Origin: Reclinomonas americana ATCC 50394
Taxonomy: Eukaryota
Assembly: GCA_048213135.1 (NCBI GenBank)
Contig: PS015171.1
Span: 23,215 to 67,912 of the forward strand
Reading direction: 5' to 3'
DNA: 44,698 nt
The stretch's first letter is position 1. Every line of letters starts with the position of its first letter. Positions 3,001-44,484 of this stretch are shown one piece after another. A program made the position numbers and the translations under genes. Below the pieces are notes generated by a model. It saw only the letters and a list, made by a program, of their open reading frames with translations. It made no database searches and was not told where the DNA came from.

Positions 3001-6000
3001 CGTACGTGTAGATACCGCCAGAGTTGCACGAGAGACTGAACCGAGCAGAGTCGTCCCGGTCGGCACTGGCACAGGTGGCCGTGCGAACGCCAAACAGTAC
3101 GGGCTTCACATCCCACTTGACACGCGGGATCACGTGCGACTCAGTGCAGCCTTCGGTGGCCAAGGCTGACTCCATGGCCTCCAGCGGCGCAATAGCCCAG
3201 TTCAGTCGGAACGCTGGGCACGACTCCCACGCCGGAGCTGCGATAACCACAAACCGGGGTGAGCTCACCTCGCACAGTCGCCACCAACACGACAGATAAA
3301 CATTTGGCACACGCAACTGGCATCGACCTCCTCCGCCAACTGGAACGTGAACGATAGGAAGTACTCGCCCGGCTCCAGATCCAGGTTCATGGGCGAACCT
3401 TCGGTCGCCGGCTTGTCATCGCCGGCACGATAGAGAGAGACACGACCAGTGATGTACTCCTGCATCTCGAGCATGACGCCGTCGGCCTTTTCGATGGTCA
3501 GTCGCATAAGCGAGCGGCGCGTGACCTTGAAGCGCACGGCCTGCGACGTGGCTGAGAAGTCGGCGTGGTAGTCGCCCGACACGTGCAGCGTGCCCGTGGC
3601 CTCGTCCAAGTAGCCAGCAGTGTTGGCAGTCGGCGGCAAAAACTCCACGGTTGGATCGCACAAGTGATGCGGCATCTGTCGCATGACCTCATCGACAGAC
3701 GTGCCCGTCGACGGCTCCGATGGTTCCTTGGGCGTCGGTGCAGAGTCAGTGGAATCATAGTCCTCCGTGTCCGACGTTGGCGTTGTCGGCTCAATCTCTC
3801 CCACCGGCGCCAAAGAGAACGTCAAATCCATGACCAGACAAGACACGGAAGACGCTGCCCGTGTGTCCGTCAGGTCGTAGCCCCACAGCGTGTACATGCC
3901 CGGCGACAGGAAGCGGTCAATGTCTTGCCGGTTGGTGTGGGAGACGCCGAGAATGCAACTGCGTGCACTGGGGTCCTTGCTGTTGTACCCGCCCTCTGAG
4001 ATGGCAGCCAGACACCCACGCCGGTTGCCACCGACCTCCACCGCCAACACCACGTGGCCCGCCACAAATCGATGCCCGAGAACGGCACGCATGGTGAGCG
4101 GTCGGTTCATCACCTGGAAGTTGAAGGAGAACAGCTCGCGGTCGAGCTCCGTGTGGCGCTCCAGATGCATGACCTTGTGCTCCAGCAGCAGACTGCCGTC
4201 CACCGGGAACCACGACGTGGGAGGGACTGGGAACTTGATTGGGTGCTTCTTGAACGCACTGCACATTTTCTGTGCACATTTTCAAGACCATGAGCATGAG
4301 CGCGCATGAGTCATTCCATCCAACATGGCAAGAGAGACGCACCTCCACCGCTGGGACCTCCTCCGTCTTGAAGTGATCCAGAGGCTCCACCTGGATCTCC
4401 ATGTTTAGCAGCACGCACCCGGCATGGTGCGTCGAGCCAGGAGTGCTGACGACATCGATTTCCACGGCGTACATGTGGCCGCTCAGCACCTGACTGGAGA
4501 GGATTTTGAGACCGGACACCAGCTGCAAGGCACTGTGATCCTCCGGTGCCTCCGGCTCCTTGGACGGCTTGCCAATCCACACTGTTGTCACGTCGCGCAA
4601 CTGAACACGCAACGCTTCAATCGGCGCACCCAACGTGTGCACCGACAAGCGGAACAAGGAGTCGCTGCGGGCGGTGAACGAGATAGAATGCCAATGCTGC
4701 AGCGTTGCTTTCCACCGCGACGACACTCCCGGCCTGTGCGACGCAAGCAACAGGCAATTCAACAGCAGAGCGAGAGAGAAAGAGAGAGAGTGTGTGTGTC
4801 ATTGGCCAGCCACTCACCGATTCGTGTCACTGGCGTCGAGTCCGGATTCGACCTCTCCAGCCACGCCATCGTCGGCCTCGTCAACACGATCGGCGAGCCA
4901 ATCCTCGCCCTCCTCTTCGCCGTCGAGCTCTTCGCCCACCGGTGCACTGTCGGTGCCACCAGACGGCGGTCGAAGGGAGCTGGGTGGAATGTACTCGGAG
5001 GTGGCGGCCAGACCGTACGTGTCCGCCACATGGAACCACGCCGTGCGGCCAAACCCGAGCGATTCCAGCGTCAACGGCGGCGGTTCGGTGTGCGACGGAC
5101 ACACGTGTTTCACCGCCGACTCTTCGGCTTCGCTGTCGCCGGTGCGCTGACACACTGGGTACTCACCAAAGTAGCCATTCTCCTCGTCGCACGAGTCACA
5201 CATGCGATGAATCGACGTGTAGCCGGGCAGACACTCGCAGATGGGGTAGCCGAGATCGTCAGTGCAGGTGCCGTAGCCACTGCAGCTCTGCTCTGCGCAT
5301 TTGTGATCCATGACGCACAGGGCCGAGTGTGGGAAGTGGTGGTAGCCATCCACACACAGTTCGCACAGAGCGCCCGTGTACGGATGAACGCACTGGCATT
5401 GGCCAGTCGACGCATTGCATGTTCCGTGACCGCTGCAGTCGCACGTGGCGCCCGTCAAAAACACATGATCCATGCGGTACACGTCGTCGGAGACAACAAA
5501 GGGAAGCGACGGTTCACGAGCTGTCCGCAGACGGCTGATTCGCAGCTTGACCACGTATTTCTGGGCAGAGCGAACAAACAAAAAATATCGTGAGTGCACG
5601 GGAGCGTCGCTGAGCACGACCCACTCTTGGTGCCGGCACCTTTTTCGGCTCAAAGTCGGCACTGTTGAACGCCAGAATCACTTGCGTGTTGTGACCGCGT
5701 CCGTAGAAAAACGCGGCCCGTGGCAGCACGCTCTTCTTCTCGCGACAGCTCGGGCACATGAGCTCCACCACACGCTCGTCGACAAACAAGTCCAGCAACG
5801 ATTTCGGCGCCGACGGCGTCTGCACAGCTGCAGAGCGACGAAATGTAAACAACCAGATATCTCACGCCCCGGCCACAACAACGAACAGCAGGTGCGTGGT
5901 ACCTTCGGAAAAGGTGAACGTCATCGAAAACNNNNNNNNNNNNNNNNNNNNNNNNNNNNNNNNNNNNNNNNNNNNNNNNNNNNNNNNNNNNNNNNNNNNN

Positions 6001-8607
6001 NNNNNNNNNNNNNNNNNNNNNNNNNNNNNNNNNNNNNNNNNNNNNNNNNNNNNNNNNNNNNNNNNNNNNNNNNNNNNNNNNNNNNNNNNNNNNNNNNNNN
6101 NNNNNNNNNNNNNNNNNNNNNNNNNNNNNNNNNNNNNNNNNNNNNNNNNNNNNNNNNNNNNNNNNNNNNNNNNNNNNNNNNNNNNNNNNNNNNNNNNNNN
6201 NNNNNNNNNNNNNNNNNNNNNNNNNNNNNNNNNNNNNNNNNNNNNNNNNNNNNNNNNNNNNNNNNNNNNNNNNNNNNNNNNNNNNNNNNNNNNNNNNNNN
6301 NNNNNNNNNNNNNNNNNNNNNNNNNNNNNNNNNNNNNNNNNNNNNNNNNNNNNNNNNNNNGGTGCCTGCATGTCGACAGTGGAGCCGGCGGGTGGGAAGA
6401 TATCGAGTAGCAGCGGTCGCGGTTTCCGAACTGCAGGATCGTCTGCCTCCTCGTCGGGCAGCTGGCCAGTGGGCGCCTTGGCCTCGAGCGTGGCGCCAAA
6501 TGCGAAGCGGAAGCACGAGAACGAGCCGCTGAACTCTTGGTGTGGTACGAAATGAACCGTGGCGGTGTAGGTGCCGTGCAGCACGGAGGTTGNNNNNNNN
6601 NNNNNNNNNNNNNNNNNNNNNNNNNNNNNNNNNNNNNNNNNNNNNNNNNNNNNNNNNNNNNNNNNNNNNNNNNNNNNNNNNNNNNNNNNNNNNNNNNNNN
6701 NNNNNNNNNNNNNNNNNNNNNNNNNNNNNNNNNNNNNNNNNNNNNNNNNNNNNNNNNNNNNNNNNNNNNNNNNNNNNNNNNNNNNNNNNNNNNNNNNNNN
6801 NNNNNNNNNNNNNNNNNNNNNNNNNNNNNNNNNNNNNNNNNNNNNNNNNNNNNNNNNNNNNNNNNNNNNNNNNNNNNNNNNNNNNNNNNNNNNNNNNNNN
6901 NNNNNNNNNNNNNNNNNNNNNNNNNNNNNNNNNNNNNNNNNNNNNNNNNNNNNNNNNNNNNNNNNNNNNNNNNNNNNNNNNNNNNNNNNNNNNNNNNNNN
7001 NNNNNNNNNNNNNNNNNNNNNNNNNNNNNNNNNNNNNNNNNNNNNNNNNNNNNNNNNNNNNNNNNNNNNNNNNNNNNNNNNNNNNNNNNNNNNNNNNNNN
7101 NNNNNNNNNNNNNNNNNNNNNNNNNNNNNNNNNNNNNNNNNNNNNNNNNNNNNNNNNNNNNNNNNNNNNNNNNNNNNNNNNNNNNNNNNNNNNNNNNNNN
7201 NNNNNNNNNNNNNNNNNNNNNNNNNNNNNNNNNNNNNNNNNNNNNNNNNNNNNNNNNNNNNNNNNNNNNNNNNNNNNNNNNNNNNNNNNNNNNNNNNNNN
7301 NNNNNNNNNNNNNNNNNNNNNNNNNNNNNNNNNNNNNNNNNNNTTAGCGACGAGTGGAAGTTGAGGAAGGGCGCCGAGTGCGCCTCATCGCCGTCCTCAG
7401 AGCTGACGGCGACCACTGCACCATCAATGGCCTGCAACTCGATGCTCATGTCGGCCAGTAGCGCATCGTAGTCCACACGCAGCGAGATTGTCGCCGACGA
7501 TGCCTCCACCGCAATGACCATAAAGTGCACGACCCGATCCTTGTAGTCCATATCGTCCACTCGCATCACATACGTGTCGGCGTAGGAGCGCACGTTCTCG
7601 TTGGGAGGCACCGTGAGCGCCACGGGCGGAAGACGCACGTGGTCCTTGGTGACATCGCCGCAGCGCACCTCCGCCATCACACGATGACTGCAAGCGGGGA
7701 GCGTGAGCACTGAGTGATCAAGATGCACGTGGCACGGCGTGTGGCGACGCAACATGGGTCGCAGGATGAAAGAAAAGTGCAAAAAATCACACGGATCGTT
7801 GGTGGGCGTCGCCTTGCCCGCACGCAGGCGCGTCACCACCAGGCGATAGGGATCGGCACTCGGCTGCAACTCGATCAGCTGACTCTCCCACGAGCCTGGT
7901 CGTGTACTGGCAAACTTCTGTGACACGCTTGCACACGTGAGCAGGAGGAGGCGCGACGACGCGCGCACTACCAACGCACCGTGTCGACCACTCCCAGCGA
8001 TTCCTCCAGTGTGGGATGAATCAGACGCGTCTGGATGTCGTCGCCGAGCGTCTCGCTTCGAAAGAAGAAGCGAAGACGGGCGCGCACCAGCACTCGAAAA
8101 GCGACCTCATGCTCGGATCCATCCTGCGCACATACGCCACGTGGTAAGAGAAGTGTGCGAATTCGTTTCCGTGGACACACATTCCGCGTCACACACGCAA
8201 CTGGTGGCACCAGGAACCGCGTACCAAACACACGAACGGAGCCATCGGAGGCATCCTGCGTACCACCGTACTCGGCGAGCGCGTCTGCGCCACACGCGTG
8301 CCACGGTCGTCAGTCACAGAATAGAAAGAGACAAGGAGACTGTGCGCGGGAATACGCGCGCATGCATGCATGTATGTGTCGTGTGTGTGTGTGTGCGTGC
8401 ATGTGCACAGACGCAACCCTTGTACAGATCCGTCGGCAGGGGGTAGCCGTCGATGTCGCACACACCCGCGTCGGGAACCACCACGCCCTGCGCGTGCACT
8501 CCCACCAGCACCGAATCCAACAGCACCAACACAACAACAGTCGCCACCACCATAGCAGCAGCAGCGACGACACGCGACGACAGCCGCGGCTGTTGGCGTC
8601 GCCGCAT
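1..8607 (-). CDS. Gene A: giant secreted/cell-surface protein with laminin-type/EGF-like Cys repeats and repeated beta-rich modules. Multi-exon, interrupted by two N gaps, 3' end outside the window.
   Basis: ATG at 8607 is followed by a hydrophobic signal peptide (MVVATVVVLVLLDSVLVGVHAQ). GT-AG splicing joins consecutive ORF fragments in frame (e.g. PTDLYK-DALAEYGG; EEVDAT-PAWESC). EGF-type repeats CDCSGHGTCNASTGQCQCVHPYTGALCELC and CSGYGTC...CECLPGY lie at about 5140-5450. The last visible exon ends at a GT donor at 60. Confidence 0.75.
5932..6360. other. Assembly gap (N run) inside gene A
   Basis: Run of N. Confidence 0.99.
6593..7343. other. Assembly gap (N run) inside gene A
   Basis: Run of N. 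Confidence 0.99.
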
Positions 8608-8686
8608 GATTAGATGATGGAAAGCTGAATCCGTCCATCTCTCGAAATGATCCTTCGTCTCCCCTTCTCGACCTTCTCTCAGTTCC

Positions 8687-9691: not shown

Positions 9692-9700
9692 ACGGTTACA

Positions 9701-9706
9701 TTTATT
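9701..9706 (-). promoter_or_regulatory. Candidate AATAAA polyadenylation signal of gene C
   Basis: tttatt on the + strand, 7 nt past the gene C stop, within the only 22-bp gap between convergent genes B and C. Confidence 0.45.
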
Positions 9707-9713
9707 ATGCGCA

Positions 9714-12700
9714 TTATTTTTTCGCGAGGACGAGGAACGTGGGAATCACGCCGACTCCCTTGCACTGCAGACGAGGTGTGGTGGGTGGGCACAGGATTAA
9801 GAAGAGATGGAGAGACAGGGAGTCGCAGCGCGCGCACTGACCTCGGCACTCGATGATTCGGTCTTGAAAAGACCGCGTGACCGCTGGTTGGTGGCCTCCG
9901 AAATCTGAATCGAGTTCGGCGGTGCCGTGCTGGCCATGCGCGAGGCGACATTGATTGTGTCTGAGCGAGGGACGAGTGAGAAAACGTCACTTAGAGGCGC
10001 CGTTGCGACACTATGGTGGTCGTCTACTCACCGCCATACAGATCAAAGCTCTGTGTCAGCTGACCGACAATGCCAGCGGTACAAGGGCCCGAGTTGATTC
10101 CAGCACGGAACTCGAGCTTAATGCGTCTCTGTACATGCGCACACATGTTACTACATCACGTGTGATGTTGTGGAAGAAAAGACAACTGCCTCACCCTCTC
10201 GCAGAACGATCTGATGGCCTCGAGGGCATGCAGTGCAAAGTCGGTCGCTGCGAACGCATGGTCGGGCCGTGGTCTGTACATTCCGCACACGACCATGTAC
10301 GCGTGACCGATGGTCTTCACCCGCTCCGCGTGCAACTTGCGGACGGTGGTGTCAAGCGTGGAAAAGAGTTCGCCAAACAATCGGATCTCCTCCTGCGCAG
10401 TCAGTGGGCCGGCGCCTGCGTCGGTACCAGTAGGAGTGCGTGAGCAACATGCGCAACTGCACAGGTAAAGACAATACGATGCTCAACCTTGTTCGCTGTC
10501 GATGCGCTCCACATCGCTGAGCTTGATGAAAACACAAGAGACTTCTGGGTGGAAGTCGACCAATGTGACGGTCTGGTGCGCGCGAGAGTCAGTGTCACTC
10601 GCAGCACATTGACACGACAAGTGCAGCAGTGCGTGCACGGCACTGACGCAACGCCAGCATCGTCGGCGGATCTCTCCGATGTCAGTTTGCTCAGCACCGG
10701 TCGGGGGAATGCCGTGTCCAGCATCTTCTCAAACACCGTATTGACACTGCTGAGGACTTGCAAGTCGTCGACCTGCTTTGGTGGCTCGCCCACACGGCAG
10801 GAGTAGTATTTGACACTGTTGACCATGGTCTCGCGCATGCTGAACACACCGTCAAACTTGCTTCCGTCTTTCCGTGTAACCGAGTACACAGCGGGCGCAG
10901 ACGCGTGACCACCGGCGCCCGACGAACGCGAGAAAGTGTTCACGAGGTCGCCGAATGTCGCAGTCTTGTTGTTCAGTGTGAGACGAAGCAGCTGGTCGAT
11001 GGAAATCGCTGTATGCGGAAGGGCGATAAGTACACACGTGCAAAACGAGACACGAAAATCAAGAGGATTGTGCTGTGCGCCCACCAGCTGACGCCAGCTC
11101 GTCCGCCGTGTACCCAAACATCTATCACGTACCACACACACGTTGTGAGAAACTGAGAATCGCCCTGGACCAAGAAAAACACACGCACCCGCTGCACGGC
11201 AGGATTCACTTGCTGAATGACGCCGTTCCGATCGCACCAAATGACGGCGTCGGAAGAGGTGGCCAACACGCCGTGCAACTCGTCGTTCTTGCGTTCCATC
11301 TCGGATCTCGTCTGGCTCTCGTCCGACACGTCTGTGCGTGACAAGGTGCTTGCTTGTAAGGGGCAAGAGACAGAGTGTGCGACTGATGCAAGGTGACGCA
11401 GACCTCGTACAAATGCGCAGTACAGCTGGCGTGTGTCGAGATCGACGCGAATGACGTGGAGATGAACACTGACAGCCTCTCCGGAACGCTTCTGCGCGTA
11501 CACTCCTCGGCCACTGTTTGTATGTGCGTGAGATGCACTGCTCTGTGAGTCTGCGGTCGAGAGTTATGACTTGCATGAAAAGACGACAACGCAACGCCAC
11601 TGCCAGGGCCGACTTGGAGGCGTCCTGTTGGTTCATGCTGCGCACATAGTCATCGTGCCGCTCCTTGTGCGGCTCTGGAACAAACATCTGGCGCCAACTG
11701 TGAGCTAGAGAAAAACAAAAGGTGCATGCACTTGCACAACTCGCGCAGAAGACGTACCCGAACATTTTGCCCGATCACTGCCGCCCGGTCATTGCCGTAA
11801 CCGAGCAGTCGCAGGAGCGAAACATTGATATCCTCGATGATGCCGGCCGTGTCGGTGACCACAAAGCCTGTGAATGGTTCACAAGCAGGATAAAATGAAT
11901 ACCGCATTGGTTACCCCGGGCATGTGTACTTGTACGCAACCATCGTGCATGGAATTGAAAATGTACAACAACTGCACCGCGATTGTGTGGAAAGTGATGA
12001 GATGCGACAATGAGACGGACACCAGCTACAGAAGACCAGACAAAACCTTCTCGCGCTGCTCCTGGAGACGTCGTTCGCGTTCCTTGTCCTCCGACACATC
12101 GTTGATGAAGCAGGAGAAGAATCGTCGTGCGGCAATGCGCCCCTCGGCCAGCGTGACAGTGACGGGCACACCAGATCCGTCGCGATGCACAGCCTGGATG
12201 TACACGAATGGTGAACGGTGAGATATCATCGATCCTTGCAGCAGAGGACTGTGGGTGACTGCGGAGGACGTAACGACGCTTTCGATCGTGCGCCCAATGA
12301 TTCGCGAGGTGCCGGGTGGTTGCAATAGGTACTTGGCAATCAGCTGATCGTGCCTCTCCCTGCACGATGGGATTGGTGTAATGTCGACAAGCAGGCCCTC
12401 ACAGACAGACTACCGACTGACCGTACTTCGGCAGGCACAATCATCTTGATGTTGGAACCAAGTGCGTCCTCGGCCGGGTAGCCCAGCATTCGTGTGAACG
12501 ACTTGTTGACCATCTCGATGAGCCTGCGCGTCAGTGTCAGCTACTTAGCCACCGCACGAGCCACACACACTCTCTTTCTCATGCAAGCAACATCTACACC
12601 ACTCACCCCTTGTCGTTGGTGATGATCACGGCACGGTCCGTGGTCTGCAGAATGGTGCGGAATTTCTCGCTGTTCTCCTTCATCTTCTTGCTGAGGTCAG

Positions 12701-15679
12701 CGGCGGAGCCAAGCATGCTTCCGGCAAAGAGGAACGACTGCAGTCCTTCGTCGCTGTTGATCACCCCAACAGGAATGAAGAGAGCGAGGTGCTTGAGGTA
12801 GCGTGTGTTAGCATCGGCCGTCAGCAACAGCGGTCGAATGTAGAACACCAGCAACAGAATGATGGCGGCCAGGGCGATGCCGAAGAGCGCCTGCAGAATC
12901 ATATTCTGCCGTGCGAGATACGACGAGAAAGCTGACCGCAGTATCTACAGGTCGACAACGCACACACAGATGAACACGAGGACACGTGAAGCAAGCGTAC
13001 TCACTCACTCCCACTCACACGCACCGCATTGCTCTGGACAAAGTAATAGTCGAGGTAGGCGCGGGCAGAGAGCATGATGCTGAGTTGCTCCTGATCAAGA
13101 GCTGCGGATGCTCCATACGACTGCACGAGTACACTGGCGGCGTCAAGAGCTCGGATGAACTGCGACAGAGCGAGACCCGTGAGGAGGAGGAGGAGGAGGA
13201 GGGAGACCTGCGAAACGAAGAACCACACTCACCACCGTATTGTACGGCCAGCACATCAGACCAATCTGCCAGCTGCTGGTGCTGCTCACACTCGGCTCGC
13301 ACCGATCGTCGTAGAGGAGGCTGTTTTGGCGTTCGTTGGCCGACGAGTCCCAAATCATCTCCGTGATGGTCGCCGCGGAGTCGGCTGTTGTTGCAGCCCA
13401 GGCTAGACGAGCGTTGCTGACGGCTGCTTGCAGTGTATCCAACAATAACCGCGGATCGCTAACACCAGAGCCACTGACGAGCTCGGCGGCGGCCAAAGTC
13501 GCCGTCTCAAAGTCTGCCACTCGGTCCTGAGAGTTCTTCACCACCGCCGCGAACACACTGCTCTGGGTGCTGGTGTTGAGGGACACGACTCTGTGGTGCG
13601 CGACGAGCGTGAGAGAGGTTCGGAGGAAGCGCTCGGCACAACAAGTGTGCTGCGTAACTGCATGATGCACAGCAACACGATGATGATGATGGTGAAAACA
13701 GCCACCCGGAACCCGATGTTGCCGAGGAACTGCCAGTCGGTGCGCACGCACTGCGAAGGCCCGTATCTTCGCTTGGCAACCACCTGCGGCGCGTAGCCCT
13801 ACACACCGCCCATGTCAACGGGTTGCTGTCGACATTGCACAACTAACTACAAGTGACAGCAATGAAACGCACCTCGCGTTCCTGCTCCGTCCGTGCCATG
13901 AACGAAAGGAACCTCTCTCGGCACTGAAAGTACACCTCCTGTGCCGTCTTACGGGCAAGCGCCTCAAACGACTGCACCGCGCCCCTCAAGTCGGCAGTCA
14001 ACGATCGCTCAATCAGAACAATGACAACAGCGGCCACGACAGCCACGCATCTGCCAGAGGCATTTCAGCCAATGTATAACAACGATCAAGCCTCACATGC
14101 AACTCACCCAACGAGAACGGCCAAGACAATGGCAGCCTCCAGTCGAAAGCTTCGATTCGTGCTGTCGAGTCGCGCACGGTGCTCATCACGCAGCGCATCC
14201 AGCGCGTCATCGACCCACAGCAGAGCATTCTTCAGCATAAAGTACGGGTTGTTTTTCATGGCCCCGCTGAGCAGCGTTGTGTCTTGCTTTGCGTACTCCT
14301 GCGAAAAAAGTAATGTCAGAGATGCACACGTGACATGACCATCCATGTACAAACGAAAACTAATGGCCGCACCGATGCAAGATCGCTGGTGGCAGCCAGC
14401 ACGTCGGCCAGCGGCAGGGTGCTTTCTACGGACGCCAGCTTGCCAGCCGCCACATCCACCAGCCAGTTGATGGAGACGCTTTGCGACATGGTATTCAGTT
14501 GCTCACTGCGTTGTATGGTGTAAGGTCAGCACCGGTCCGCACACCACCATAAGGGATGACAGGCGGATTCGGAGGCACGCAACTCTTGATACTTGAGTAA
14601 CTCGATGGCATCGCTTCGGGCGGCCGTGGCGTTACCTTGGAGGTAATTGGTGAGATCGCTTACTTGCCGCTGCAGGTCGGCACCGGACGAAGTCGTAGTT
14701 GCCAGTCGTCGAAGGCGCGATGCCGAATAGACGCTGCGCATGAATGCAACCCTGCATGGAAACACGTGTTAGCTAGTGAGCGACAACTGCGATGTGCCCG
14801 ACTGCAGTAGTGGGGGCGACGAAACTTGAGGTGATTGACGGCAAAGGAGGTGACCAGCTGCCGGTTCACGGCCGAGTTGGTTGAGGTGGCAAGCACGAAG
14901 CTGGCAACAACGGTTGCAACGAAGACAATGCCGATGCTGACCAGCAACAGCATGGCCTGGCGCGTGTGTGGATTCTGTGCAGCCTTGTTCAGGAACACAG
15001 AGGACGGCCATCTTTCAGTACGAACTGTCGTCAAACCATTTCCGAGAGAACGACCTGACGGAGCATCGAGGAGTACATGCTGTCCATCGACATGGTGGAG
15101 GATCCTCGCGAGCTGGACGACATTCCGCTGCTGCTGCCGGTGGGTGAGCTATCGGCGTCACTTGTAGTGTCTTTCGCGGCCATGCTGGTGTCGACTGGAG
15201 TAACACTCGGCTTCGTTGCCTCTGCAGTGGACGAAACGACTCGTGAGCTCAGAGAAATGCAGACGGAAGAGGGATGATGGCTGCCAGTTACGAAACTCTC
15301 CACCAGTCGTCGGTGAGAGCCAGCCATCTGCGGACAGAATAGACAGGATCAGCAACAAAAAAAACACAAATAAGAGCGGCAGAGCGAAGCAAGAGACCTT
15401 TCGTGTGCTATTGGATCGAGGCGCCAGCTCATTCGAAATAGCTTGCACCGGTACCATTTCGGTGGCGGTGGGTGCCTCGTCCACATTCACGAAACCGATG
15501 CGTCGAGATTGCGTTCTCTTGACATCATGCCGTGGTGACCGACCAGCTGCGGCGAGGAACTTGCCAGGCACAGTGGCCGTAGCGTGACACCCTTCATCGT
15601 CGTCCTCCTCGTCGCCACAGTCAACCGCCGCACACTCTGCCTCGCTGCCAGTCTCGAACGGCCGCACTGCACCAACAGC

Positions 15680-15736
<57 letters not shown>

Positions 15737-17711: not shown

Positions 17712-17744
<33 letters not shown>

Positions 17745-19409: not shown

Positions 19410-20046
19410 TGCTGCGCCAATCCAGTGCGTATGCGCAACGTGTGGTGTGCGAAAGAGGAGAAAACACGGCTGAGAAGTCTCGCCTGCAAAGCCGCTTCTC
19501 TCTCGCCACAAACTGCAAAAACAATGAGTTTGTAGACGACGAAGACGTTTCCAGACCGTTACTTTGCAGCGCGGGTTGGACATACTCCATTCTGTGAAAC
19601 AACAGCCCCTGACCAGCGTGGTGTGGAGAGTCGTGTGGCAGAGTACAAAAACCGGCTGCGATGATCGCCAGTTTGCGTCTCTGCTGCCGCATCATTCGCC
19701 ACGGTGACGATCGTCACTAGCTTTTACCAAAAGATGCCTTTCTAGACAATAACGCGGTTGCAATTGGCGCATCCCCGTGGAGGACGTGGCAGCAACGTGG
19801 AGCGCTCCCATGGCTCGGTGACCCGTCGCGACGCGCAACTTTCCAGCTTGCCATACGCTGATATGCCGGAGTACACACCCTCCTGTTTGGTCCGGAAACC
19901 CGCTTCCTTTTGGAAAACAAAAGTTCTTTTCGTGTCATGTCTGGATATCTAAAACAGCGGAACAAAGTCAGCCGTCTCTTGTCGTGCACCTTAGACTGCA
20001 TTCGCCATCCACAGCATTGTCATCAGTGAAAGTACAATTTTGTTCA

Positions 20047-28795: not shown

Positions 28796-29283
28796 TTGAT
28801 TGGTTTCCGAGCAAGGAGCGAGACGATGTTCACACTGTGTGGCGCCACGCAAAGTCGCCTCTCTCGCCACTCACTGCCACTTGTGTGTCAACGTCCTCGC
28901 ACAATTGGAACAGAAAAGTCACACACTGGTTTCTTTGTCTCGCACAATTGTTCAAAATCAACTGCAACGGTCGACGACCGTGATGTTGCCTTTTTTGGCG
29001 CGGAATGACCGCGAATCCAGTGAGATTCACAAGCACGGCCCGTGTGGCGCAAGAGACTACAGTGGCAGCGACGGGGGGGCAGGGGGTTTACTTTTTTTTT
29101 TTTTTTTCACTTCGACGCGGTTGACCTCGCATCTTCTTTGCGAGTTGGAATCTGTTCGCGATCGGTTTCTCGAATTCCGTGCAAACTGACGCACTGTAAA
29201 CGCTCTCTTTCGTCGTCACGGTGTAGAGAGTCGCAGACGGCAGGACGATTGGAATGCATCTCGTCGTCGTGTCGATACTCATT

Positions 29284-31391: not shown

Positions 31392-31570
31392 TGCGAGCGG
31401 AACAAAAGCGCAGCGTCCTGCGAAGCTCACATTGTGCGATCGTCGTCAATCGTGCGCAGCGACTGTGTGTGTGTGTGTCTCTTTCTCTGTCTTTGTGTGT
31501 GTTCTCACCTGTGCGCAGTCTGTGTGTGTGTGTGCCCAGGCATCTATCATAAGCAAGAAAACCAGGCGTC

Positions 31571-34079: not shown

Positions 34080-34370
34080 GCGCGTTACTCTTATCCACGT
34101 CTCACAACCCATGTAATTTTTTGAATGGAATGTGTTGATACCCCGTTCACTTGGTGTTGTGTTCACAATCCACACTGGGAGGCGAGCAGCACTGAGAGAG
34201 GAGAGAAGAAGTACACATTCGACTGGGACAGAGTTGTTTTCTGGTTGCGGTCCTGCCGATACGAGCAGCCTTGGTTGGCTTGTTCGAAGGAGAAGGACGG
34301 GCTGGATCAGAGACAAAAGACAAGGAAAGGCACAGAGAAATGTCCAGAGACTGGGCGCCATGTGCGCGTC

Positions 34371-37300
34371 TTACTGGCCCAGAGCGGCCCAGGTGAAGTC
34401 CACGGCTGGAGCACCAGGTCCCGGCACTGCAGCGCACACGTATCATGAGATCGAGAAACAATAGAGGCGCATAGATCGGCAGCACGCAACGGCCAAGTGC
34501 AGGGCCAGCCGGGTTCGTCAACGCGAGGCACGCCTGGAAGGCAGTGGCGGTCACATTGGCCGTCGTCAGAGAAATCGAGTAGGCGAGCGCAGTGCCGGCC
34601 ACATCGTAGACCGTGCGACTGGAGGAGTTGAGCTGCCAGCCGCGAGCAAACACCACCACTTGCGGCGCTGAAGTGAACGGCGTCGAAAACGTAATCGTGG
34701 TGCAGGTAGCCGAAGTCAGTGTGCCCTGCATACATCAAGAGAGTGGCAGTCAGTGACCAGCTGGCATCCGCACCGAGTACCACCAGTCACGCACCTCTCC
34801 ACCCTTGAGTCCAACGCCACCAGCATTGCCAGTCGCCTGCATGGCAATCCACGAGTACACGAGACGCGACACGCGAGCATCGGCGTACGCCCAGGCGCTA
34901 CGCAGCAAGCGACGTACATGAATGAGGCACAAGAGAATGTGCAACGGATAACCACGACAGATAACACACACCGATGCGTAAACGACTGTGTGCTCACACC
35001 CTCGACGGTGCCCGTAAAGTGCGCCGGACGGCGACCGTCCAAGTGCAAGTGACGAAGCGCTGCAACCACAGTGGGCGGCGAGTTGAAGCCGAGGAGCGAC
35101 TGATTGACGGCCTGATCGCGGCCCGGATCGGCAAGGAGCGAGCCAGACGGCGGCAGCGAGAACCAGTCGGAGCGCACTTGCGAGGAGTGGCTGACGGTGC
35201 CCTGCGCGGTGGCGCCGAGGTTGCGCGGCGTATAATGCGCCAGGATGTTGACTTGCAGATTCGTAATGCTATCACTGGCGTAGGCCAGGCAGCGCAGTGT
35301 CATGAAGCGCACATCGACACGCTGCACGGAGAGAGCAAAACACAATTTAGATCGCACGATGATCACACTCTGCAGCACATGAAAAGCACACCGTAGTCGA
35401 GCAATACACGCGCGAGTCACTAACAGCGGCCACAGCAAATGCGGAGATGCCGACGAGAACGTCCGGTGTGCCGGCTGACGACAGGAACATGCATGTGAGA
35501 ATTGCAGGGATAGGCACCCAGCATTCAAACACGCGCCAACAAACCGAAGCGCGAGTGGTTCGTCGGGTCCCATTCAATCTGCGTCTCAAAGGTGCGACTT
35601 CCCGTTCCGCCGTTGAACAGAGAATTCGCCCAGTCGGGGAAGAGCGGATCGGCGGCGACCGAGGAGTTGACAATGTCTACAACGTAGCGCGCGTGAGCAG
35701 TGGATCTGCGTACCAATGAAATCCCCCCGAGTGGACGCAACGAGTGCCCACAGCAATGACGCCACCAGGCACGGCAGCCCACGTAGTCCCGTCCGACTTG
35801 AGGTAGCAGACCTGGTAGGCGCCGCTGCTGGTGAACGTGGCCGTGGCGCCAAACGAGGTGCATGTGCCATCGGTGCCACAGTTCTTCACACCAACGTCAC
35901 CCGCAAGCGGGTCGTTTGACGGAAGCGACGATGCGAACGTGCCCTCCGTCGCCGGGCTGTTGCACAGATCCTTGCCAAAGACGACGGCCTTGATCTGGAG
36001 TGGTGCACATACACACATGAGTTCGCGAACGAGAAATGCGCGCTAGTCACCATGCACGCACATCGATGCAGCTGGTGAAGCGACCGAGAAGGCGAACGAG
36101 AGCCGCGGTGTTGGGGAGGAGACCATCCGCAGACGACAGCGTAGGAGTTGAATTCGGAGCCGCTGCACGAGGGACGCGTGCACGTTAATGCGACTGGCCA
36201 GCAACAAAACACATCAACGTGCGAGCACGAACCAGAGACGGCAAACTTGCCAAAGTCGACATCAGCGTTGCTGGAAACCGAGAGCTTGCCGCACAGACGA
36301 TATGGACCGGGTGTGGCCAGAGCAGTGCACGAGCTGCGCGTGTCGACCTGCAGCTCCAGACCAGTCAGGACGGTGGATCCCACCGTGATTGTGGTGTTTG
36401 GCAGCGAGGTGCCGTTGCATGCCGAGGTCGACGACACGTAGAACACGTTGCCGGCACCCGGCGTCAGTGCGGACAAGTCACCGCCCGTCACCGTGATCGT
36501 GGCGCCGACGATGCCCGAAGGCACCACATACACGCCCGACGACACCGTCGGCGACACTGTGCCACGCACGTTAGGAAACAGATGGTCATATGTGGGGGAA
36601 AAATAGAATCGACGCACAGATAGACACCGACAGGAAGAGCACTGGGCTGTACGAGACACCGCCATTGATCGACTGGCACAGAGTGAGTCCAGTGTAGCCA
36701 GTGGAGGTGGCCAGGGTGTTGAAGTTGAGTGTCACCGAGGTGGCAGAGGTGAAGGTCGTGATGCTAATCTCCGTCTGGGTGGCAGCATCTTGAGTGCAAG
36801 CCGCATTACTGAAGAGGTTGAACACCGTAAGGGCGGTGTTGCTGAAACCGCCACCGATGACCACAACCGGCTGCGTCAGGGTGCTGGTCAGCAGCAGGAT
36901 GCTCGTGGGCGAGACCGCGCACGGGCCAGCCACAGTCACAGTCGCGCCAGTCGGCGTGTAGGTGGTGCCGCCGTTAGTCGACGCACACAGCGTGAACGTG
37001 CCCGGTGCGACATCACCAGCCGCACTGGCGAATACCAACGTGGCCGAAGTCGCAGAGTTGATCGTTGGAGTGACAGTGGGGTTCGTGGCAAGAGTTCCGC
37101 ACAACCCCGTGCTCAGCACCGAGGTCGTCAGTCCAAACACCGGAGCGACGAGCGGGGCCGAGACGGTAAAGTTGGATCCCGCGACATCCACACTCTGTGT
37201 GAAGGGACCTCCGACCGCTGCACACACACGCGTAGTCAGCAGCGCACCAGAGCCGCGAGAGATGGCAAGAGGGGAATACGGGCAAACCTGCATTGCACTG

Positions 37301-40300
37301 GCCAGCGTAGATGGTCGGCTGAGTGCTGACACAGGTGCCGGTGATGGTCACCTGCACGCCCACGTAGCCCCAGTTGCCGTTGGAGCGGGTCTGGCACAAG
37401 AACATCGGAGCGCCGAGCGGGGTCGCCTGATTGCTCGTGTCGAAAATCAGACTCTGGGTCGTCGATGTGGAGGCCGGTGTGCTTGCGGCACGGATGCGAA
37501 CGGTGGTAAGCTGACCCGTGACACACTGGTTCGAATCAAACAGGCCAAGTCGGTAGGTGCTGTTGGCCGCGGGAAGCGACAAGCCAGTGAAGTTGATGGT
37601 GGTCAAGTTGGTGGAGGCCGAGCACGCCGGCTGCAGCTGCACGGTCGCCGGCGATGTGAGGCACGAGCCGTTGTTGCGGAGGACAACGCCTACACAACAG
37701 CAACAGAGTTGGTGCGTCAGGCATGGGTGGCTGAGGCAAACGAACTTGTGAAACATAAGCAAACCAGTGTGGGCATAGTGGCCATTGTCGCCCGCGGAAG
37801 TGGAGCACAGGTACAGGTTGCCAGTGATCGTGGCGTTGCTGGTGAACGTCAGCGACAGAGACGTGTTTGCAGTCACCGTAGTCGGCGAGGAGACTATCAC
37901 ATGGTTGCCTTGATTTGCCGTGCAAGCGGCGTCGGTAAACACAGCGTACTGCGCATGAGTGCATGTACATGTTGATAGTCAGCTTCCTTGTGTCGTACTG
38001 ATACGTATGGATAGCAATTACCGCACCGTGTTCGACGCCGCCAAGTCCGTACCCGTCAGCGTCACCACACGCGCAACCGCACACTGAGCACCACCTGACT
38101 TGTCGGCAATCACAATGCGCGTTGGCGAGAGCGAGCAGGCACCCGCCACTCGCACAGTTGCACCCTGTCGTCGAGCACAGTGAGCAAGAATTGAAAGTAT
38201 CGCGCGAAAGATGAATCACACAGAGGAATCACCGTGTCTACGTAGTTGCTCTGTGTGGACAGGTTGCGCACGCAAAGGTGCAGCACGGTGACAGACGATG
38301 TCAGGCGGTTGACGGTGTTGAAGCCGAGAGTTTCCATGTTCACACTGTCGACTGCAGTGCGCGAAATGCTGATCGAGGTTTCCAGGGTGTCGCACGTGGT
38401 CGTAGTTGCCAAGGCGTACACCTGGTTCGGGTACGCCGCCGCAGTCTTGAAGCTCGAACCGAATACGCCCACCGACAGAATGGCCGGATCCGGAATCGTC
38501 TGACCCACCACGGCCACGGTGCGCCTGTGGTAATCAATCGCAATACAGATTGTCAGCATCTCATGGAATGGACAGAGATGTGCACGCTCGAGGAGAAGCA
38601 CAGAGAAACTCAACTGTCGGACGAAGCAGGAACCAGGAGTCAGGCGGATGTTGGGGTTGGCGGAGAAGACCGTCTTCTGAATGCACGATCCGTCGTTGCG
38701 GATGACAGCACCCGTCCATGCGAAGCTGCCGGCGTCCGCGGCCGAAGAAGAGCAGAGGTACTGGTCGCTGTCCGAGACCAATGTGACCGATGTCAGCGCC
38801 AGCGACATGCTGGTGAGGCCGGAGACAGTAGTGGGCGACGCTGTCGTGACAGCGGGGCTTGCAGTGGAGGCGCAGGCTCTATCCGTGAACACGCGATACT
38901 GCGCAGATTTCACACAGTCACGAGGACATTGAGTGCCGGCGACAACAGGCAAATTGGCTGCACTCGAAAGAGTGCAAAACGCAACTGTCTTGGCCGGATC
39001 CAGCTGAGTGCCCACAAGAGTAAACGTGCGAGTCAACAGGGCATTAGTACAGAAGGGATCGGTCATCAAGATGGACAGCGGTCGAGTGACACAAGAGCCG
39101 TCGACCAGGATGGTGGCGCCGGTGAACATCCAGTTGGTGCCACTGTCTGCACTCTTGAAACACTGCGCGAATACAACAGTAAAGACACGGGCGCAATTGA
39201 CGCTCGGACGGCAGATGAATGCTTATCACACGTACCACGTATCCAGGGCTGGTGTTGGTTGCCACAACCGAGGTCAGCGTAAACTCCAGCCGCTGGTTCG
39301 TGGCACTCCAAGCCGCACCCGAAGCACTATTGGAGACCGTGCACACCGTCAGATGACAAGCGCACAACGAGGTGAACAAAGTTGATGCCACACGCAACGA
39401 AGGAACAATCGTGTAGCCCGTACGCTGCGTCGAGCAGGTGTTTTCATCGAAGACAGCGTACTTCTTGGCGGCGTTCGCAGGAAGCGAAGGGTCGAGGAAA
39501 CCACTGCCCTTGACAGAGATGGCTTGTGTGTTGGAGATGCAAGTGCCCGGGGTGAGGGCGACAGGGAATGTGTTGGTCAGTGCGCCGGCCGAGATACACG
39601 GCCCGTCCACACGGACAACCGAGCCCGTCCACGAGCTGCGCGGTGGGAGGTAAGACGTGCACATATATACATGTTTGTGTGTGTAAGGCGAGTAACAACA
39701 GGTCACGAAACTACTGGCCATTGTCAGCCGCCACATCCGTGCTGCACAGGTAAAAGTTCGCCGTGGATGCGGTGACTGAATTGAAATCCAGCGTCAAAGT
39801 CGACGTGCCGAACACAGGGTTGGCGACGGTGACGGCCGTGGCCACGGTGGCGCATGCCGAATCCGTCGTGATTTCGTACTTTTAGTTGAGAGAGAGAGAG
39901 AGAGAATACAACACGTCAGCCACGTGTGCGCATCGCCAGACCGCCAAACAACGTACCGCATTGTTGTTCTCGATACCGAAGCCCGACACGGTGATTGTAC
40001 GAGTTGATGTGCACACTGCAGCACCCGGGTCGGGGAGCTGAATGCGGGCAATCGTGTTGGTGCACACGCCGCCGACATTGACAACCGGGCCTAGAACAAA
40101 CATGTTAATGTCATACATCGGCGGTGCAGGTGAACGGAGGCACACATACAAAGTGCGCACCAACAAATGCCCAGTTGCTTGTGTTGCCTCGACGCATGCA
40201 GAGGACGAACGAGGTGTTCACACTGGGACGGTACACAGTGGTCTGAAACGACAGCTTCTGGTTCCCCGTGTCGGTCACGCTGTCGAGCAGAATCGTCACT

Positions 40301-41083
40301 TGGAGGTTGATATTCGCCGGATCGCAAGTTTCAAATACCCCGTTGCCAGTGCTGGCGAACAAGGCATACTGCTTGACTGCACGTATGCACACAACGTGGT
40401 GAGAGTGAGAACATGTCAGGCGTGTGCACGTGAGACTGCGAACCAGGGAAGTCTTGGAAGGGATTGCCAGTCACAGGAATGATCTGCGGCTCGTCAAAGC
40501 AACCGCCGCGGGTGACCTTGATAAGCGGAGTGTCGATGCATGTCGCGCCGACCCACACATCAATGCCCGTGTTCACGCCATCGGCAAACAGGAAGAAGTG
40601 CGTGTCGAAAATAGCTGAAGGGGCGGAGTCAAACTGCAGCCGGAGTGTCGTCGGCTGCAAGTCGAAAATGTTGGCACCAAATGCAAAGTTGGCTCCCGCG
40701 TCCCGTCTGCAGAAAGTAAATCGACAAGAGCTCAGCATTGGCGGCACTTAGTGGTGGGAGTGAGAGTGTGCAAAGTACGTACACAGAAAACGCGGTGCCA
40801 AAGTTGTAGATGGTGTCCAAGCTGGTGCCAGTGAAATCAATGACTTGCACATATCCACCAGTGGTGAACTTGACGCAGTCGGACGGAGCCAGGAACACCG
40901 CCGTGGGCGTCTCCAACGCTGCACACAGAAAGGATTCCATTAGTGAGTGGAAAGGAGTGGACAAGAGGCGAGACAGCGCTCACCTCCATCTGCGTGTGTC
41001 GCGTGCAACAGCACCAAAACTGCGACAAGCATGGTCGCCAGAGCAACCACAGAGTGGCAGTGCATTTTGCGGGTAGCACTCAT
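34371..41083 (-). CDS. Gene G: large secreted protein with tandem Cys/Thr-rich ~110-aa modules and three C-terminal H-type lectin-like domains
   Basis: ATG at 41083 with signal peptide SVVALATMLVAVLVLLHATHA. Repeating G.C...ITV.G..F...Y.VF.D..C...L.LC...Y..TG units. The C-terminal GFNSPPTVVAALRHL...VYSWIA and ITFSTPFTSAPQVVV...DFTWAALGQ resemble H-type lectin domains. TAA at 34371-34373. Confidence 0.75.
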
Positions 41084-41585
41084 GTTTCTCTGCGCACAGT
41101 GACGCTCAGTGAGAACACATCACAGCACGCAGCGACGAGGTGAGAAAAGACAACCAAGAGAAAGAGAGAGGACGCGTTGAAACCAAGGCAAGCAGTGATC
41201 GTGTGTGTGTGTGTGTGCACGCGCGCTCTCTCTCTCTTGCTACACAGGAGGGAGAGAGAGCACAGAAGCACGCGTGTGTTTGATACGCACGTCTCCACGC
41301 TCCACAGTGCGAGGGGGGACCGAAACTACCGAAACAAAAGAGACGAAAATGTGCGGCTTCGCGCGCGCGCGAAAGCCAACGTCTCTAACGGCCGCATTTT
41401 CTTCTCTGTCGCCGGTGCTCGCTTTCTCGCTCGTCCCTGTTGTCATTGGCCACCGCCGCCTGTGTAGAGAAAGGAATGCACGCTTAACATCGCCCAACGC
41501 ACCTCATAGAACTGCCTGTCTGTATACAGCTGCTGCACGAACACCGGCCGTCGTCGCTTACGCACTCGCATTTCGCTCACGCGTG

Positions 41586-41615
41586 CTCGGCGGACTCGGC
41601 GGACTCGGCGGACTC
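41586..41615. repeat. 9-bp tandem repeat (CTCGGCGGA)x3.3, just downstream of ISCA1
   Basis: Direct reading. Confidence 0.8.
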
Positions 41616-41674
41616 ACTGCATCGCACACGCCACCTGCCCCCACACACGGCACTTCCGTCTATCGTATCGTACG

Positions 41675-42433
41675 TCAGTCTACATTGAAACTCTCACCAC
41701 ATCCACAGGTGCCCTTGGCATTGGGATTGGTGAATGTGAACTCACTGGCCAGTCGCGTCTCCTGTGCATCGCCCGTCGCAGGCTGGTTGAGTTCGACGTG
41801 CACCTGGAGGGGGAAAAAGGAGAGGAGAGCAACACACACCTTGTAGTCCATCTCCACTCCCAGCAAGTACATGAGTGCCTTTGGCTCGATGACCACACGG
41901 ACGCCTGCGACCAAGAGGAGGAATGAGAGAACACACGCACACACGCAGACGCACATGCGCGTGAGAGAGGTACACGCACCCTTCGTCTCCACCACCTCCT
42001 CAAACTTGCCCGGCGGCTCACGAGCATAGTTGAGTGTGTACGAGAAGCCATTGCATCCACCACGCCGCACTCCCAGTCGCACTCCATAACAAGGACCGCC
42101 ACTGTCGCCGCTCTGCTCCGTCTGCATCCGCATCAACTCCGCAATTCGCTCCGCCGCCGCATCAGTCTGCCACCCACCAATCACATCACTCATCATCCAA
42201 CCATATCTCACGTGCACACTCCTTACCAATGTCAAAACTTCTTTCCGTGGTCGTAGCCGCGCAGCTGGTCGCTCCGGCAACGGTGCACCACCACTCGCGC
42301 CTCCACGCCGATCGCACGCTGACGTGTCGCGAGCTGCGGACGACGACAAGGATGACATGGAACGCGGTGGTGCCCATGCGGCGACGACTGTAAACTCCAC
42401 GCGAGACAACCGCGTCACTAGTGCACGCAGCAT
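41675..42433 (-). CDS. ISCA1: Gene H: mitochondrial A-type iron-sulfur cluster assembly protein 1, 4 exons
   Basis: Presequence [11 protein letters not shown]. Motifs [25 protein letters not shown] and [29 protein letters not shown]. Introns at 42167-42226, 41905-41979 and 41762-41839. Confidence 0.95.
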   Translation of the reverse strand: [252 protein letters not shown]

Positions 42434-42540
42434 CGTCGCTCTTTGAGTGGATAAGGATGCGCGGATTCCACGACAATCAACAAACAATTGTCGCGGGCTG
42501 GTGACTGCTTGCCAAGTGCGTTGGGCGTGGACTGGGGAGG

Positions 42541-44484
42541 ATGACGCCATTGGCGTCGAGACGATCGTGTACTGTCGTTGTGGTGTCGTTGTTTGCGTGT
42601 GCGGTGCTGTTGGGCACGGTGTGGTCGCTGCTGCGTGCTGATCGCCACGTGTCTGTTGACGGTGGCGAGAGAGAGGAGGCGGGATCGGTGGTGGTGGAGG
42701 AGGAGGAGTTGATGTTGTGGGATGGTCGAGAGGATGTGACGGCGGAGGTGCATGAGTGGCGTGAGCAGCTGGAGGTGTGGGTGATTGCGCTGGTGAGTGT
42801 TGTGAGAATGTGTTTGACTGGTGTGTGTGCAGGCGGCTCGACGACGGGGACCTGTGGGCGGTGGGCAGTGTCGGGAGCATGTGACACGCATGGCGGGGTT
42901 GCCGGCGTCGGTGGCCAACTGGATCGAGATGGCTGTGCGCAATCCGTTCATGTTGCGCTTTTTTTTTGATTGTCTCTGTTGACAACTGCGTGTGCATTTC
43001 GTGACACGAGTGTCGCGTCGCAGACATCGACTGCTGCTCGATCTGGCGTCGCCTACGTTGTGTCAGCGACCGTCGATGATGGCGCTGAGAGAGCGATTGC
43101 AGTCGGCGCAGTGCGCACGGCTGAGTAGTTGCGTGCACACGCGCGCGCAACGAACGATGCTGGGCTCTGTTTTGCTTGTTGGTGACGCGTCGATGGTACG
43201 CGCACGCAGGTCACACGTCCACATTCTGGCAAATCTACCACAAGCCGGAGACGTGGTCTTCATTGTACAACATGCCGTGGACAGGTGTGTGTTGCATCGC
43301 AGCGCGGCAACAAACAAGATCGCTCAATTGCCGTGCGGGCAGGTGGTATCAGTGTGACGCCCGACCAGTTGGCTCGCTACTGCGACATCAACATTACCGA
43401 CTTTACCACGACGTTTGTGACGGATCCACCCAGCAAGGGACTGCGTGCACAGACGCAGTTTGCAGAGCAGGCGGCGATTGTACCGTTCGGACTCGGCGCG
43501 TACTGCTTGCCACTGCCTGACTGGTTCGGCTTTGGCACATGGTGAGGGTGGGGCGGTACTCCATGCACTTGCCGCTTGCAGTTGCTGACGTGCGGTGTGT
43601 GTGCTCTCTGCAGGCAGCAAGACGTGAAGGTGCGGCCGCCGTGTGAGGTGCTGGGCGACTTTGACATTCAAGGTGTGTGTTTTTGGAGAGCGCACTCCCA
43701 CTCCCACTCTCGCTCATCGACGAGTTGCGTAGCTGTGTCAGAGAATACCGTGCTTGCATGGGTGCGTGCTGGAGAGGATCGAGCTGCTGTCGTCGTCGCC
43801 GTCGTCGTCCCCCTGCCCTCACATGTATGTGTGTATGTGCGAACAGAACGATTTTCTGAGTTCCACGCAGGGCAGTCTGCTGAAACAGGCTGCCGAGGCA
43901 CACGGCAAGGCACTGGTGGATACACTGGAGTCAATGATGCAGGAGGTGTTTGGCACGCCGTTCCCCATTCCGGCCGAGATCCAGTGCAAGGACTACCGCT
44001 GCATCCCGTGCTGTGCCCACATGTACATGCACCGGAACACGCTTCGCGTGTTTGCCAAATTCCAGCTGGCCTTCTTCGCCTACGCCTTCGGTACAGGGCA
44101 ATACTTGGGTGGTTGCTCGTACCTGGAGCGCGGAATGACGCACGGCCGGTGCTTCGCGTACGTGGCAGAGCGACTGACGTCGCTCTTCTTCTTCATGAAG
44201 GAACGCAAGGTGACCGCAACGTCGATGCGCTCTTCCCACCTATTTCGTTCCGTGCTCACTCCCTCGGTTGCGCCGCGCAGTTGCTACTGTGGAGGCTTCC
44301 GCTTCGCACCGAGTGTCCAGACCCGGTTTCCGTGGAAACCTTCGACTTTTACCAGCAACAGCCGGCACTCACTAATCAAGATATTAATCGATTGTTCGAC
44401 GCTCTCGTGGAATGCAACAATATGGCGGCGGCCGAGAATCAACAAGAGGAGGAGAAGGACGAGGCGGAGCGTGAAGTACCATAA
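42541..44484 (+). CDS. Gene I: type II membrane protein with a DUF4422-like (putative glycosyltransferase) domain; 5' exon joins partly unresolved
   Basis: N-terminal TM anchor VVVVSLFACAVLLGTVWSLL. Motifs FAEQAAI...PDWFGFGTWR, AHMYMHRNTLRVFAKF and RCFAYVAERLTSLFF resemble the DUF4422 pattern (E...YIG..HYRR; NMFIM; R..GFL.ERL). TAA at 44482-44484. Confidence 0.55.

Follow-up and report, generated by a model that had tools for sequence, protein, structure and literature searches.

Candidate 5' splice sites with a one-base-displaced consensus, GTTRMGT, form a frequent predicted intron class in a nuclear DNA stretch of Reclinomonas americana

Introduction

Shifted-register 5' splice sites, which Roca and Krainer reportedly described in human genes in 2009, are donors of GT-AG introns at which U1 pairs displaced by one base, the G at intron position +1 replaces the G that normally ends the exon, and the cut is made at the GU. 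Here, we analyse a stretch of 44,698 nucleotides from Reclinomonas americana ATCC 50394 (GenBank assembly GCA_048213135.1, contig PS015171.1, positions 23,215 to 67,912 of the forward strand; hereafter the window, with positions counted from its first letter), in which many introns appear to begin not with an ordinary GTRMGT donor but with GTTRMGT, the same consensus displaced by one base. Whereas human shifted-register sites are rare, this class, referred to below as the GTT class, would account for about 24-31% of the predicted introns of the window. It further differs from the human sites in being dominated by one sequence, GTTGCGT, and in pairing poorly with standard U1, and its register is one that we infer.

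Shifted and bulged U1 registers have so far been treated as rare exceptions. The available text of Tan et al. (2016, PMC4856993) assigns 1.5% of 201,541 human 5' splice sites to the validated non-canonical registers taken together, and 68 predicted and 54 curated sites among that same number to the register with a bulge at +2/+3. The latter sites, as far as they are described there, resemble the window class in having GUU donors with the consensus from +4 onwards displaced by one base, and the likeness to rare atypical mammalian sites that the initial annotation of this DNA had pointed out is correct in the light of that source. However, the bulge +2/+3 register makes use of the G at the exon end, and the window class is depleted of it.

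In Entamoeba, atypical 5' splice sites have co-evolved with U1, according to the accessible portions of a preprint (Roy and Bowser, 2022; 10.1101/2022.06.08.495308). There the departure is lineage-wide, consists of T-rich sequence after the GT and is matched by a changed U1 5' end. Nevertheless, as presented in those portions, the atypical site of Entamoeba is near-universal, lies in intron-poor genomes and is read in the normal register, whereas the window holds two donor classes within intron-rich genes. The same portions give, for Mastigamoeba balamuthi, a U1 recognition sequence ACGUAC and a donor consensus GUGCGC, with C favoured at the fourth intron position as in the GTGCGT donors of the window; according to them, C at this position is accompanied by an altered U1 in Mastigamoeba, whereas in Thecamonas and Micromonas it is not (10.1101/2022.06.08.495308). 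No shifted class figures in the available description of Mastigamoeba, whose U1 variant is borrowed here as a hypothesis only, and the accessible text of the preprint contains no mention of shifts or bulges.

Neither of two further articles describes an abundant shifted class in its available text (PMC12621601, PMC13326754), and no prior report of such a donor class was found in the literature covered, which lay mostly outside subscription journals and did not extend to supplements; an earlier description may exist, for example as the donor logo of a genome article. Searching the literature by heptamer returned primers and unrelated matches only. If the reading proposed below is true, a single non-canonical register would define a quarter of the introns here.

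Results and discussion

GTTRMGT heptamers are in excess and follow the coding strand

The coding strand of each region was assigned by a codon score, which assigned 1-31200 and 34051-42550 to genes on the minus strand, and 31201-34050 and the region from 42551 to the end of the window to genes on the plus strand. The 24 donor positions proposed in the initial annotation all bear GTT[GA][CA]G[TC] on the strand given for them: 19 are GTTGCGT, two GTTGAGT and one GTTACGT, and the two remaining sites carry C at +7 (GTTGAGC at 10487 and GTTGCGC at 21210; sites are named here by the position of their first G). Its account of the ordinary donors as GTGCGT, GTGAGT and GTACGT also held, since the gene parse described below uses these hexamers 21, 17 and 8 times, respectively.

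Both the excess of the motif and its strand bias can be read directly from the window. GTTGCGT occurs 25 times on the two strands together, compared with 11.95 ± 3.86 in dinucleotide-preserving shuffles (maximum 20; none of 100 shuffles reached 25), and 25 of the 44 occurrences of TTGCGT are preceded by G. Relative to the assigned coding strands, 23 copies are sense and two antisense (binomial p = 1.9e-5). The corresponding figures are 29:8 for GTTRMGT as a whole and 91:58 for ordinary GTRMGT. When 1219 heptamers were scanned for strand asymmetry, GTTGCGT ranked fourth, below two CT-repeat words and GGTGTGT and above the ordinary donor word GGTGCGT (16:3). Moreover, the ratio of GTTGCGT to GTGCGT was 23:44 in sense and 2:27 in antisense orientation (p = 0.0049), a pattern not expected from sequencing error. 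Variants with C at +7, taken as a class, were found 15 times sense and nine times antisense and showed no signal in the composition test presented below; their class-level support is weak.

As a separate observation over the whole window, GGTGTGT showed a sense-to-antisense ratio of 21:1 and (CT)n words one of about 60:10. This bias would have one of two sources, namely GTGTGT donors or microsatellites of TG and CT located preferentially in coding-strand introns.

GTTRMGT sites are selected as donors in gene parses

The window was parsed with a home-made dynamic-programming gene parser combining codon log-odds, GT donors, AG acceptors, a length prior and a check on split codons. Run without any donor model, the parser was noisy, yet it picked seven GTTRMGT sites. 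A self-training donor dictionary was rejected, as it over-predicted introns (about 300, the antisense strand included). When only ordinary GTRMGT donors were rewarded, the parse used 50 of the 91 ordinary sites and two of the 29 GTTRMGT sites on the coding strand; under an equal reward for GTTRMGT, 23 of the 29 were used and the total score rose by 77.9. In comparison, 20 random GT-heptamer classes of equal size had 8-15 of their 29-36 sites used, with gains of 14.8-53.3, and under the same reward the related classes reached 0/1 (GTA followed by RMGT), 5/19 (GTC followed by RMGT) and 7/20 (GTG followed by RMGT). A smaller reward gave a similar picture, with 15 of 29 GTTRMGT sites used and a gain of 44.0, against 3-11 of 29-39 sites and gains of 3.1-30.1 for the random classes.

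One parse with both classes rewarded contained 100 introns, 47 of them with ordinary donors, 24 with GTT donors (23 GTTRMGT plus the GTTGCGC at 21210) and 29 with others; when the variants with C at +7 were rewarded as well, it contained 103, divided into 46, 32 and 25. Thus, the share of the GTT class among the predicted introns of the window lies between about a quarter and a third, and these figures are rough because the parser makes visible errors, such as odd long introns and merged genes. All seven parse units hold between two and nine GTT donors, and neighbouring genes are merged in them. The median predicted intron length was 83 nucleotides for the GTT class and 78 for ordinary donors.

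Among the predicted GTT introns, 21 of the 24 initially listed sites, together with four further ones (4613, 12274, 25000 and 35741), were paired in frame with AG acceptors, a pairing that is partly by construction because the parse demands an AG. The initial annotation had stated that the donor phase matches the next acceptor in each case. This was supported for 20 of the 24 sites in one parse and for 21 in another. Counting open reading frames proved too permissive in GC-rich DNA for a site-by-site test of phase.

Base composition changes across the sites as at ordinary donors

That the sites lie at exon-intron borders is shown by base composition. A trinucleotide exon-versus-intron score was trained on 40 ordinary introns only and its change was measured across each site, a procedure independent of the choices that the parser makes for the GTT class. 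The median change from exon to intron was 4.73 for GTTRMGT, close to that of the training introns (4.49), and 0.05 for other GT sites on the coding strand (p = 1.5e-4). No significant change was detected for any of the control classes [ACT]TTRMGT, GT[ACG]RMGT, antisense GTTRMGT and GTTRMGC.

The acceptor signal of the window is weak, consisting mainly of CAG (C at -3 in 28 of 41), and a 13-position matrix barely separates true acceptors. By eye, CTSAC-like branch motifs can be recognised 15-30 nucleotides upstream of several acceptors.

Remote homologues support three of the junctions

Homology was examined where GTT sites fall within recognisable domains; the remaining ones lie outside such domains. 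For the PAS domains, 339 PAS units taken from foreign hits, and none from the window, were combined into a profile, and at each junction every in-frame, stop-free GT-AG or GC-AG alternative within 36 nucleotides was scored against it.

The GTTACGT donor at 20824-20830 on the minus strand, located in a cyclase domain and joined to its acceptor by a parse intron of 73 nucleotides, splits the Pfam Guanylate_cyc domain so that model positions 4-94 precede the intron and 93-167 follow it. Against the remote PAS-cyclase homologue P0119, the alignment reaches residue 1947 before the intron and resumes at residue 1950 after it; the window has two residues in between, an exact match in length. Another GTTACGT donor, absent from the initial list, lies in a PAS domain at 12268-12274 on the minus strand (parse intron of 81 nucleotides). 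Here the GTT start ranked first of four alternatives by 7.1 bits, with profile positions 66-94 before and 93-139 after the intron. The GTTGCGT donor in a PAS domain at 11934-11940 on the minus strand (73 nucleotides) ranked first of six, 4.5 bits above the next alternative, a GC donor three nucleotides downstream. An ordinary control intron at 11757 ranked first of 28 by the same profile. These three GTT junctions are thus clearly supported by remote homologues as predicted splice junctions. The fourth case, a GTTGCGT donor in a PAS domain at 11589-11595 on the minus strand with a parse intron of 82 nucleotides, ranked first of 35 and is not discriminated. The two joins quoted in the initial annotation as rebuilding motifs (MHD-GFVVTD in a PAS domain and KFNE-ANNYNIQIRVG in the cyclase) were both borne out by homology.

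A donor of a related form, GTCTGCGT, was observed in the same region at 11396-11403 on the minus strand, in which the GCGT core is again present but shifted by two bases. Its junction at 11403 ranked first of 35 in-frame alternatives by the PAS profile, by 6.8 bits. There is little support for GT-N-T-RMGT as a class, with 17 sense and nine antisense copies and three of the 17 used in the parse. The available text of Tan et al. (2016, PMC4856993) includes a two-base bulge example of the same form as this donor, and presents human two-base bulges as proven only in artificial contexts.

The exon side of GTT donors suggests a probable shifted U1 register

The exon-intron context of the GTT class differs from that of ordinary donors in the way expected of shifted-register 5' splice sites, since the preference for G at the exon end is lost: such a G was present at three of 28 GTT donors compared with 26 of 47 ordinary donors (p = 1.7e-4). 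Sliding the exon side of the class by one base improves its fit to the ordinary profile by 11 nats. On the intron side, the G that follows the core lies at +8 in 12 of 28 GTT sites and at +7 in 27 of 47 ordinary sites. When GTTGCGTG is compared with the ordinary G|GTGCGTG, positions +3 to +8 of the GTT class mirror ordinary positions +2 to +7, and from the viewpoint of U1 the former is the latter with T at the place of the ordinary +1.

Pairing was evaluated by duplex prediction with the U1 5' end as printed in Tan et al. (2016, PMC4856993). With this standard U1, ordinary donors had a median energy of -6.6 kcal/mol, other GT sites one of -2.5 and the GTT class one of only -1.5. Pairing as poor as this makes it likely that an adapted U1 or some other factor is involved, and plain tolerance of the GTT sites by an ordinary U1 would, judging by these models, be unlikely. 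A GCGT core is present in 21 of 28 sites of the GTT class and in 21 of 47 ordinary donors (p = 0.016). When U1 was given a hypothetical G at position 5 (G5 U1), the median became -5.5 kcal/mol for the GTT class and -4.1 for other GT sites, and the shifted register was predicted in full for 14 of the 28 GTT sites and in part for nine more. Ordinary donors of the window themselves prefer C at intron position 4 (29 of 47; GTGCGT and GTACGT).

The initial annotation had proposed that the sites are real and abundant GT-AG donors whose consensus is the ordinary one displaced by a base. Every informative test agrees with this, and the sites behave as donors throughout, their use in splicing being a prediction. 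As possible causes, the annotation had suggested a variant U1 or U6, or tolerated bulging. We consider it likely, although well short of certain, that the GTTRMGT sites, most of which are GTTGCGT, act as true 5' splice sites of ordinary (U2-type) GT-AG spliceosomal introns and are recognised in a shifted U1 register, probably by an adapted U1. The exact cut site, the register and the adaptation of U1 are what we infer. In such a mechanism, the cut would fall before the first G of GTTRMGT, and the G that normally ends the exon would supply the GU that is cut. The pairing of U1 would then be offset by one base from the cut site, and the cut would be fixed at the GU by components acting later in the spliceosome (U6, U5 and Prp8). 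U1 may be adapted to the GCGU core, for example through a G opposite the C as in Mastigamoeba; alternatively, a second U1 or extra protein help might serve.

A broader claim is more tentative, and we would put its chances slightly below even: that this lineage routinely uses two U1 registers, with about one intron in four out of step and its cut placed by the later components, by means of an adapted or second U1, which would make it the first organism with a non-canonical register as a major, sequence-defined intron class. If true, it would offer a natural system for studying what determines the choice of cut site independently of U1 pairing, and how small nuclear RNAs (snRNAs) and splice signals co-evolve. 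On the practical side, gene finders with a single donor matrix would score GTT sites badly and mis-annotate the genome.

Several observations weigh against a genuine donor class in a shifted register. Random GT classes were still used at 25-48% in the parses. The parser is home-made, relies on a weak codon bias (0.63 for G+C at third codon positions, GC3), gives a bonus to the class under test and makes visible errors. Three of the initially listed sites (30553, 39398 and 33462) were used in no parse. The best downstream acceptor-matrix score gave no separation between the GTT class and other GT sites (p = 0.49), a test in which ordinary donors were themselves barely separated (p = 0.014). The first rank of junction 11595 by the PAS profile was won by a margin of 0.1 bit only. 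With regard to the register, A precedes 10 of 28 GTT sites, but is found at ordinary position -2 in only seven of 47 donors, and the match to a shifted profile therefore rests mainly on the missing exon-end G. Finally, the G5 U1 variant is hypothetical and borrowed, and nearest-neighbour energies ignore U1C and pseudouridines.

Alternative explanations

The main rival keeps the sites as real donors cut before GTT, but places U1 in its normal register at +1/+2, with one T bulged, or with a variant U1 or U6 that carries an extra base. Writing the motif as the consensus plus one inserted T is equally valid, the available text of Tan et al. (2016, PMC4856993) presents registers with a one-base bulge at +2/+3 as proven in human cells, and normal-register pairing of +1 is predicted for three of the 28 sites with either U1. 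However, a normal register should keep the exon-end G preference, and its loss in the GTT class speaks for a shifted U1 register rather than a bulged T. Moreover, standard U1 gives neither register appreciable pairing, and with the G5 U1 the shifted register, in full or in part, is far commoner than the normal one. A bulged T or an extra snRNA base thus appears unlikely, although it deserves to be kept in mind.

Improbable, in our view, is a second possibility, that the donor-like element is real but many of its copies are minor, cryptic or regulated sites rather than main donors. Three to four of the 24 listed sites went unused in the parses, unusual lengths of 210-322 nucleotides suggest that several parse introns are wrongly paired, and a GTACGT lies five nucleotides downstream of 30553. 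Against this, the GTT junction was the best model where homology could judge, with three clear cases, and the parse used 79% of the GTT sites, more than the 50 of 91 ordinary donor motifs.

According to a third explanation, the introns would be of the GC-AG type and begin three bases further on (GTT|GCGT...), GTT being the last triplet of the exon. The reading frame is then the same, so frame tests do not discriminate, and the GC donor at +3 was indeed among the best in-frame alternatives by the PAS profile at 11940 (103.3 versus 107.8 bits for the GTT start) and 11595 (107.2 versus 107.8). Nevertheless, such introns are possible only with a GCGT core, since GTTACGT and GTTGAGT have AC or GA at that place, and the best homology-supported junctions, 20830 and 12274, are both GTTACGT. 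The GTT start is the one preferred by the profile at 11940, and ordinary donors have no comparable triplet at the exon end. In addition, copies of the motif are found in every codon phase (12/8/12), which argues that GTT is a signal and not a codon. Little likelihood is left to this explanation.

Least credible of all, and hardly worth retaining, is an artefact or chance effect, in which the extra T would be a sequencing overcall in GTGCGT or the heptamer frequent by composition: the window is indeed gapped draft sequence with three runs of N, but no shuffle reached the observed count, the orientation of the motif is that of the genes on either DNA strand, domain matches in the exons are intact and free of frameshifts, and the exon-end base differs from that of ordinary donors.

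Other candidates were discarded. Donors of U12-type introns have a consensus of the RTATCCTT type, and none of the GTT sites bears it. Introners were rejected because the matches listed among the 103 parse introns were just 14 short ones (15-18 nucleotides), with no families; the matches shown involve few distinct introns. Placing the intron start one base further on (G|TT) would require introns that do not end in AG, and this reading was rejected on the grounds of established spliceosome chemistry.

Individual sites of the GTT class

Apart from the sites in PAS and cyclase domains treated above, most predicted donors of the class are GTTGCGT sites on the minus strand, all of them initially listed unless stated otherwise. 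Parse introns of 80, 66, 78, 158, 61, 60 and 87 nucleotides start at 3311-3317, 7747-7753, 8195-8201, 14577-14583, 23844-23850, 27940-27946 and 38979-38985, respectively, and one of 81 nucleotides at 4607-4613, a site not listed before. For three other donors a shorter intron is also possible, namely 78 instead of 133 nucleotides at 8411-8417, 64 instead of 115 at 30201-30207, and 64 instead of 117 at 34484-34490. The site at 35735-35741, also new, was given an intron of 65 nucleotides in the parse without a donor model and one of 322 in a later parse. The donor at 10646-10652 was used in the parse, and by eye an acceptor at 80 nucleotides rebuilds the start of the cyclase domain. The sites at 30547-30553 and 39392-39398 bear the motif and are candidates only, as is 33462-33468 on the plus strand.

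The other heptamers of the class on the minus strand comprise a GTTACGT at 24994-25000, not listed before (85 nucleotides), and a GTTGAGT at 25464-25470, whose parse intron of 275 nucleotides is unusually long, so that its acceptor is uncertain. Of the two variants with C at +7, the GTTGCGC at 21204-21210 was used without a class bonus (71 nucleotides). The GTTGAGC at 10481-10487, inside a cyclase domain, was used only when such variants received one; its homology support is not exact because the loop is four residues longer than in P0119 by hand count.

On the plus strand, the GTTGAGT at 32617-32623 (62 nucleotides) was picked also without a donor model, and the GTTGCGT at 32810-32816 has a parse intron of 84 nucleotides. 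Acceptors are uncertain for the GTTGCGT donors at 32107-32113 and 43128-43134, with parse introns of 210 and 225 nucleotides.

The parse also contains donors with T at +3 but without the RMGT core, at 12040-12046, 14819-14825, 36226-36232 and 40437-40443 on the minus strand, with the sequences GTTTTGT, GTTTCGT, GTTCGTG and GTTCGCA. They are candidates that may be parser errors.

Genes of the window

The window is nuclear DNA with a G+C content of about 57%, and is gene-dense, its genes containing many short introns. A scan with Rfam detected no snRNA and no other RNA family in it. Two word-index searches of large public protein collections found no close relatives of the proteins encoded in the window, and a metagenome scan found no relative. 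A full HMMER search with a PAS exon recovered remote PAS proteins only, whose cluster names refer to bacterial FixL-like proteins or are lacking; the best pieces in a tblastn comparison of these hits with the window were short, with 36-47% identity.

Pfam domains comprise those of two PAS/adenylate-guanylate cyclase genes, as well as EGF, TPR_TmcB (at 26337-26723), DUF4460/4461, H-type lectin and an Fe-S assembly domain, and nearly all matches are located on the minus strand. The two multi-PAS adenylate/guanylate cyclase genes are paralogous and extend over about 9800-15000 and 19700-23000 or beyond, both on the minus strand. In the first of them, the cyclase domain looks degenerate by eye at the metal-binding motif.

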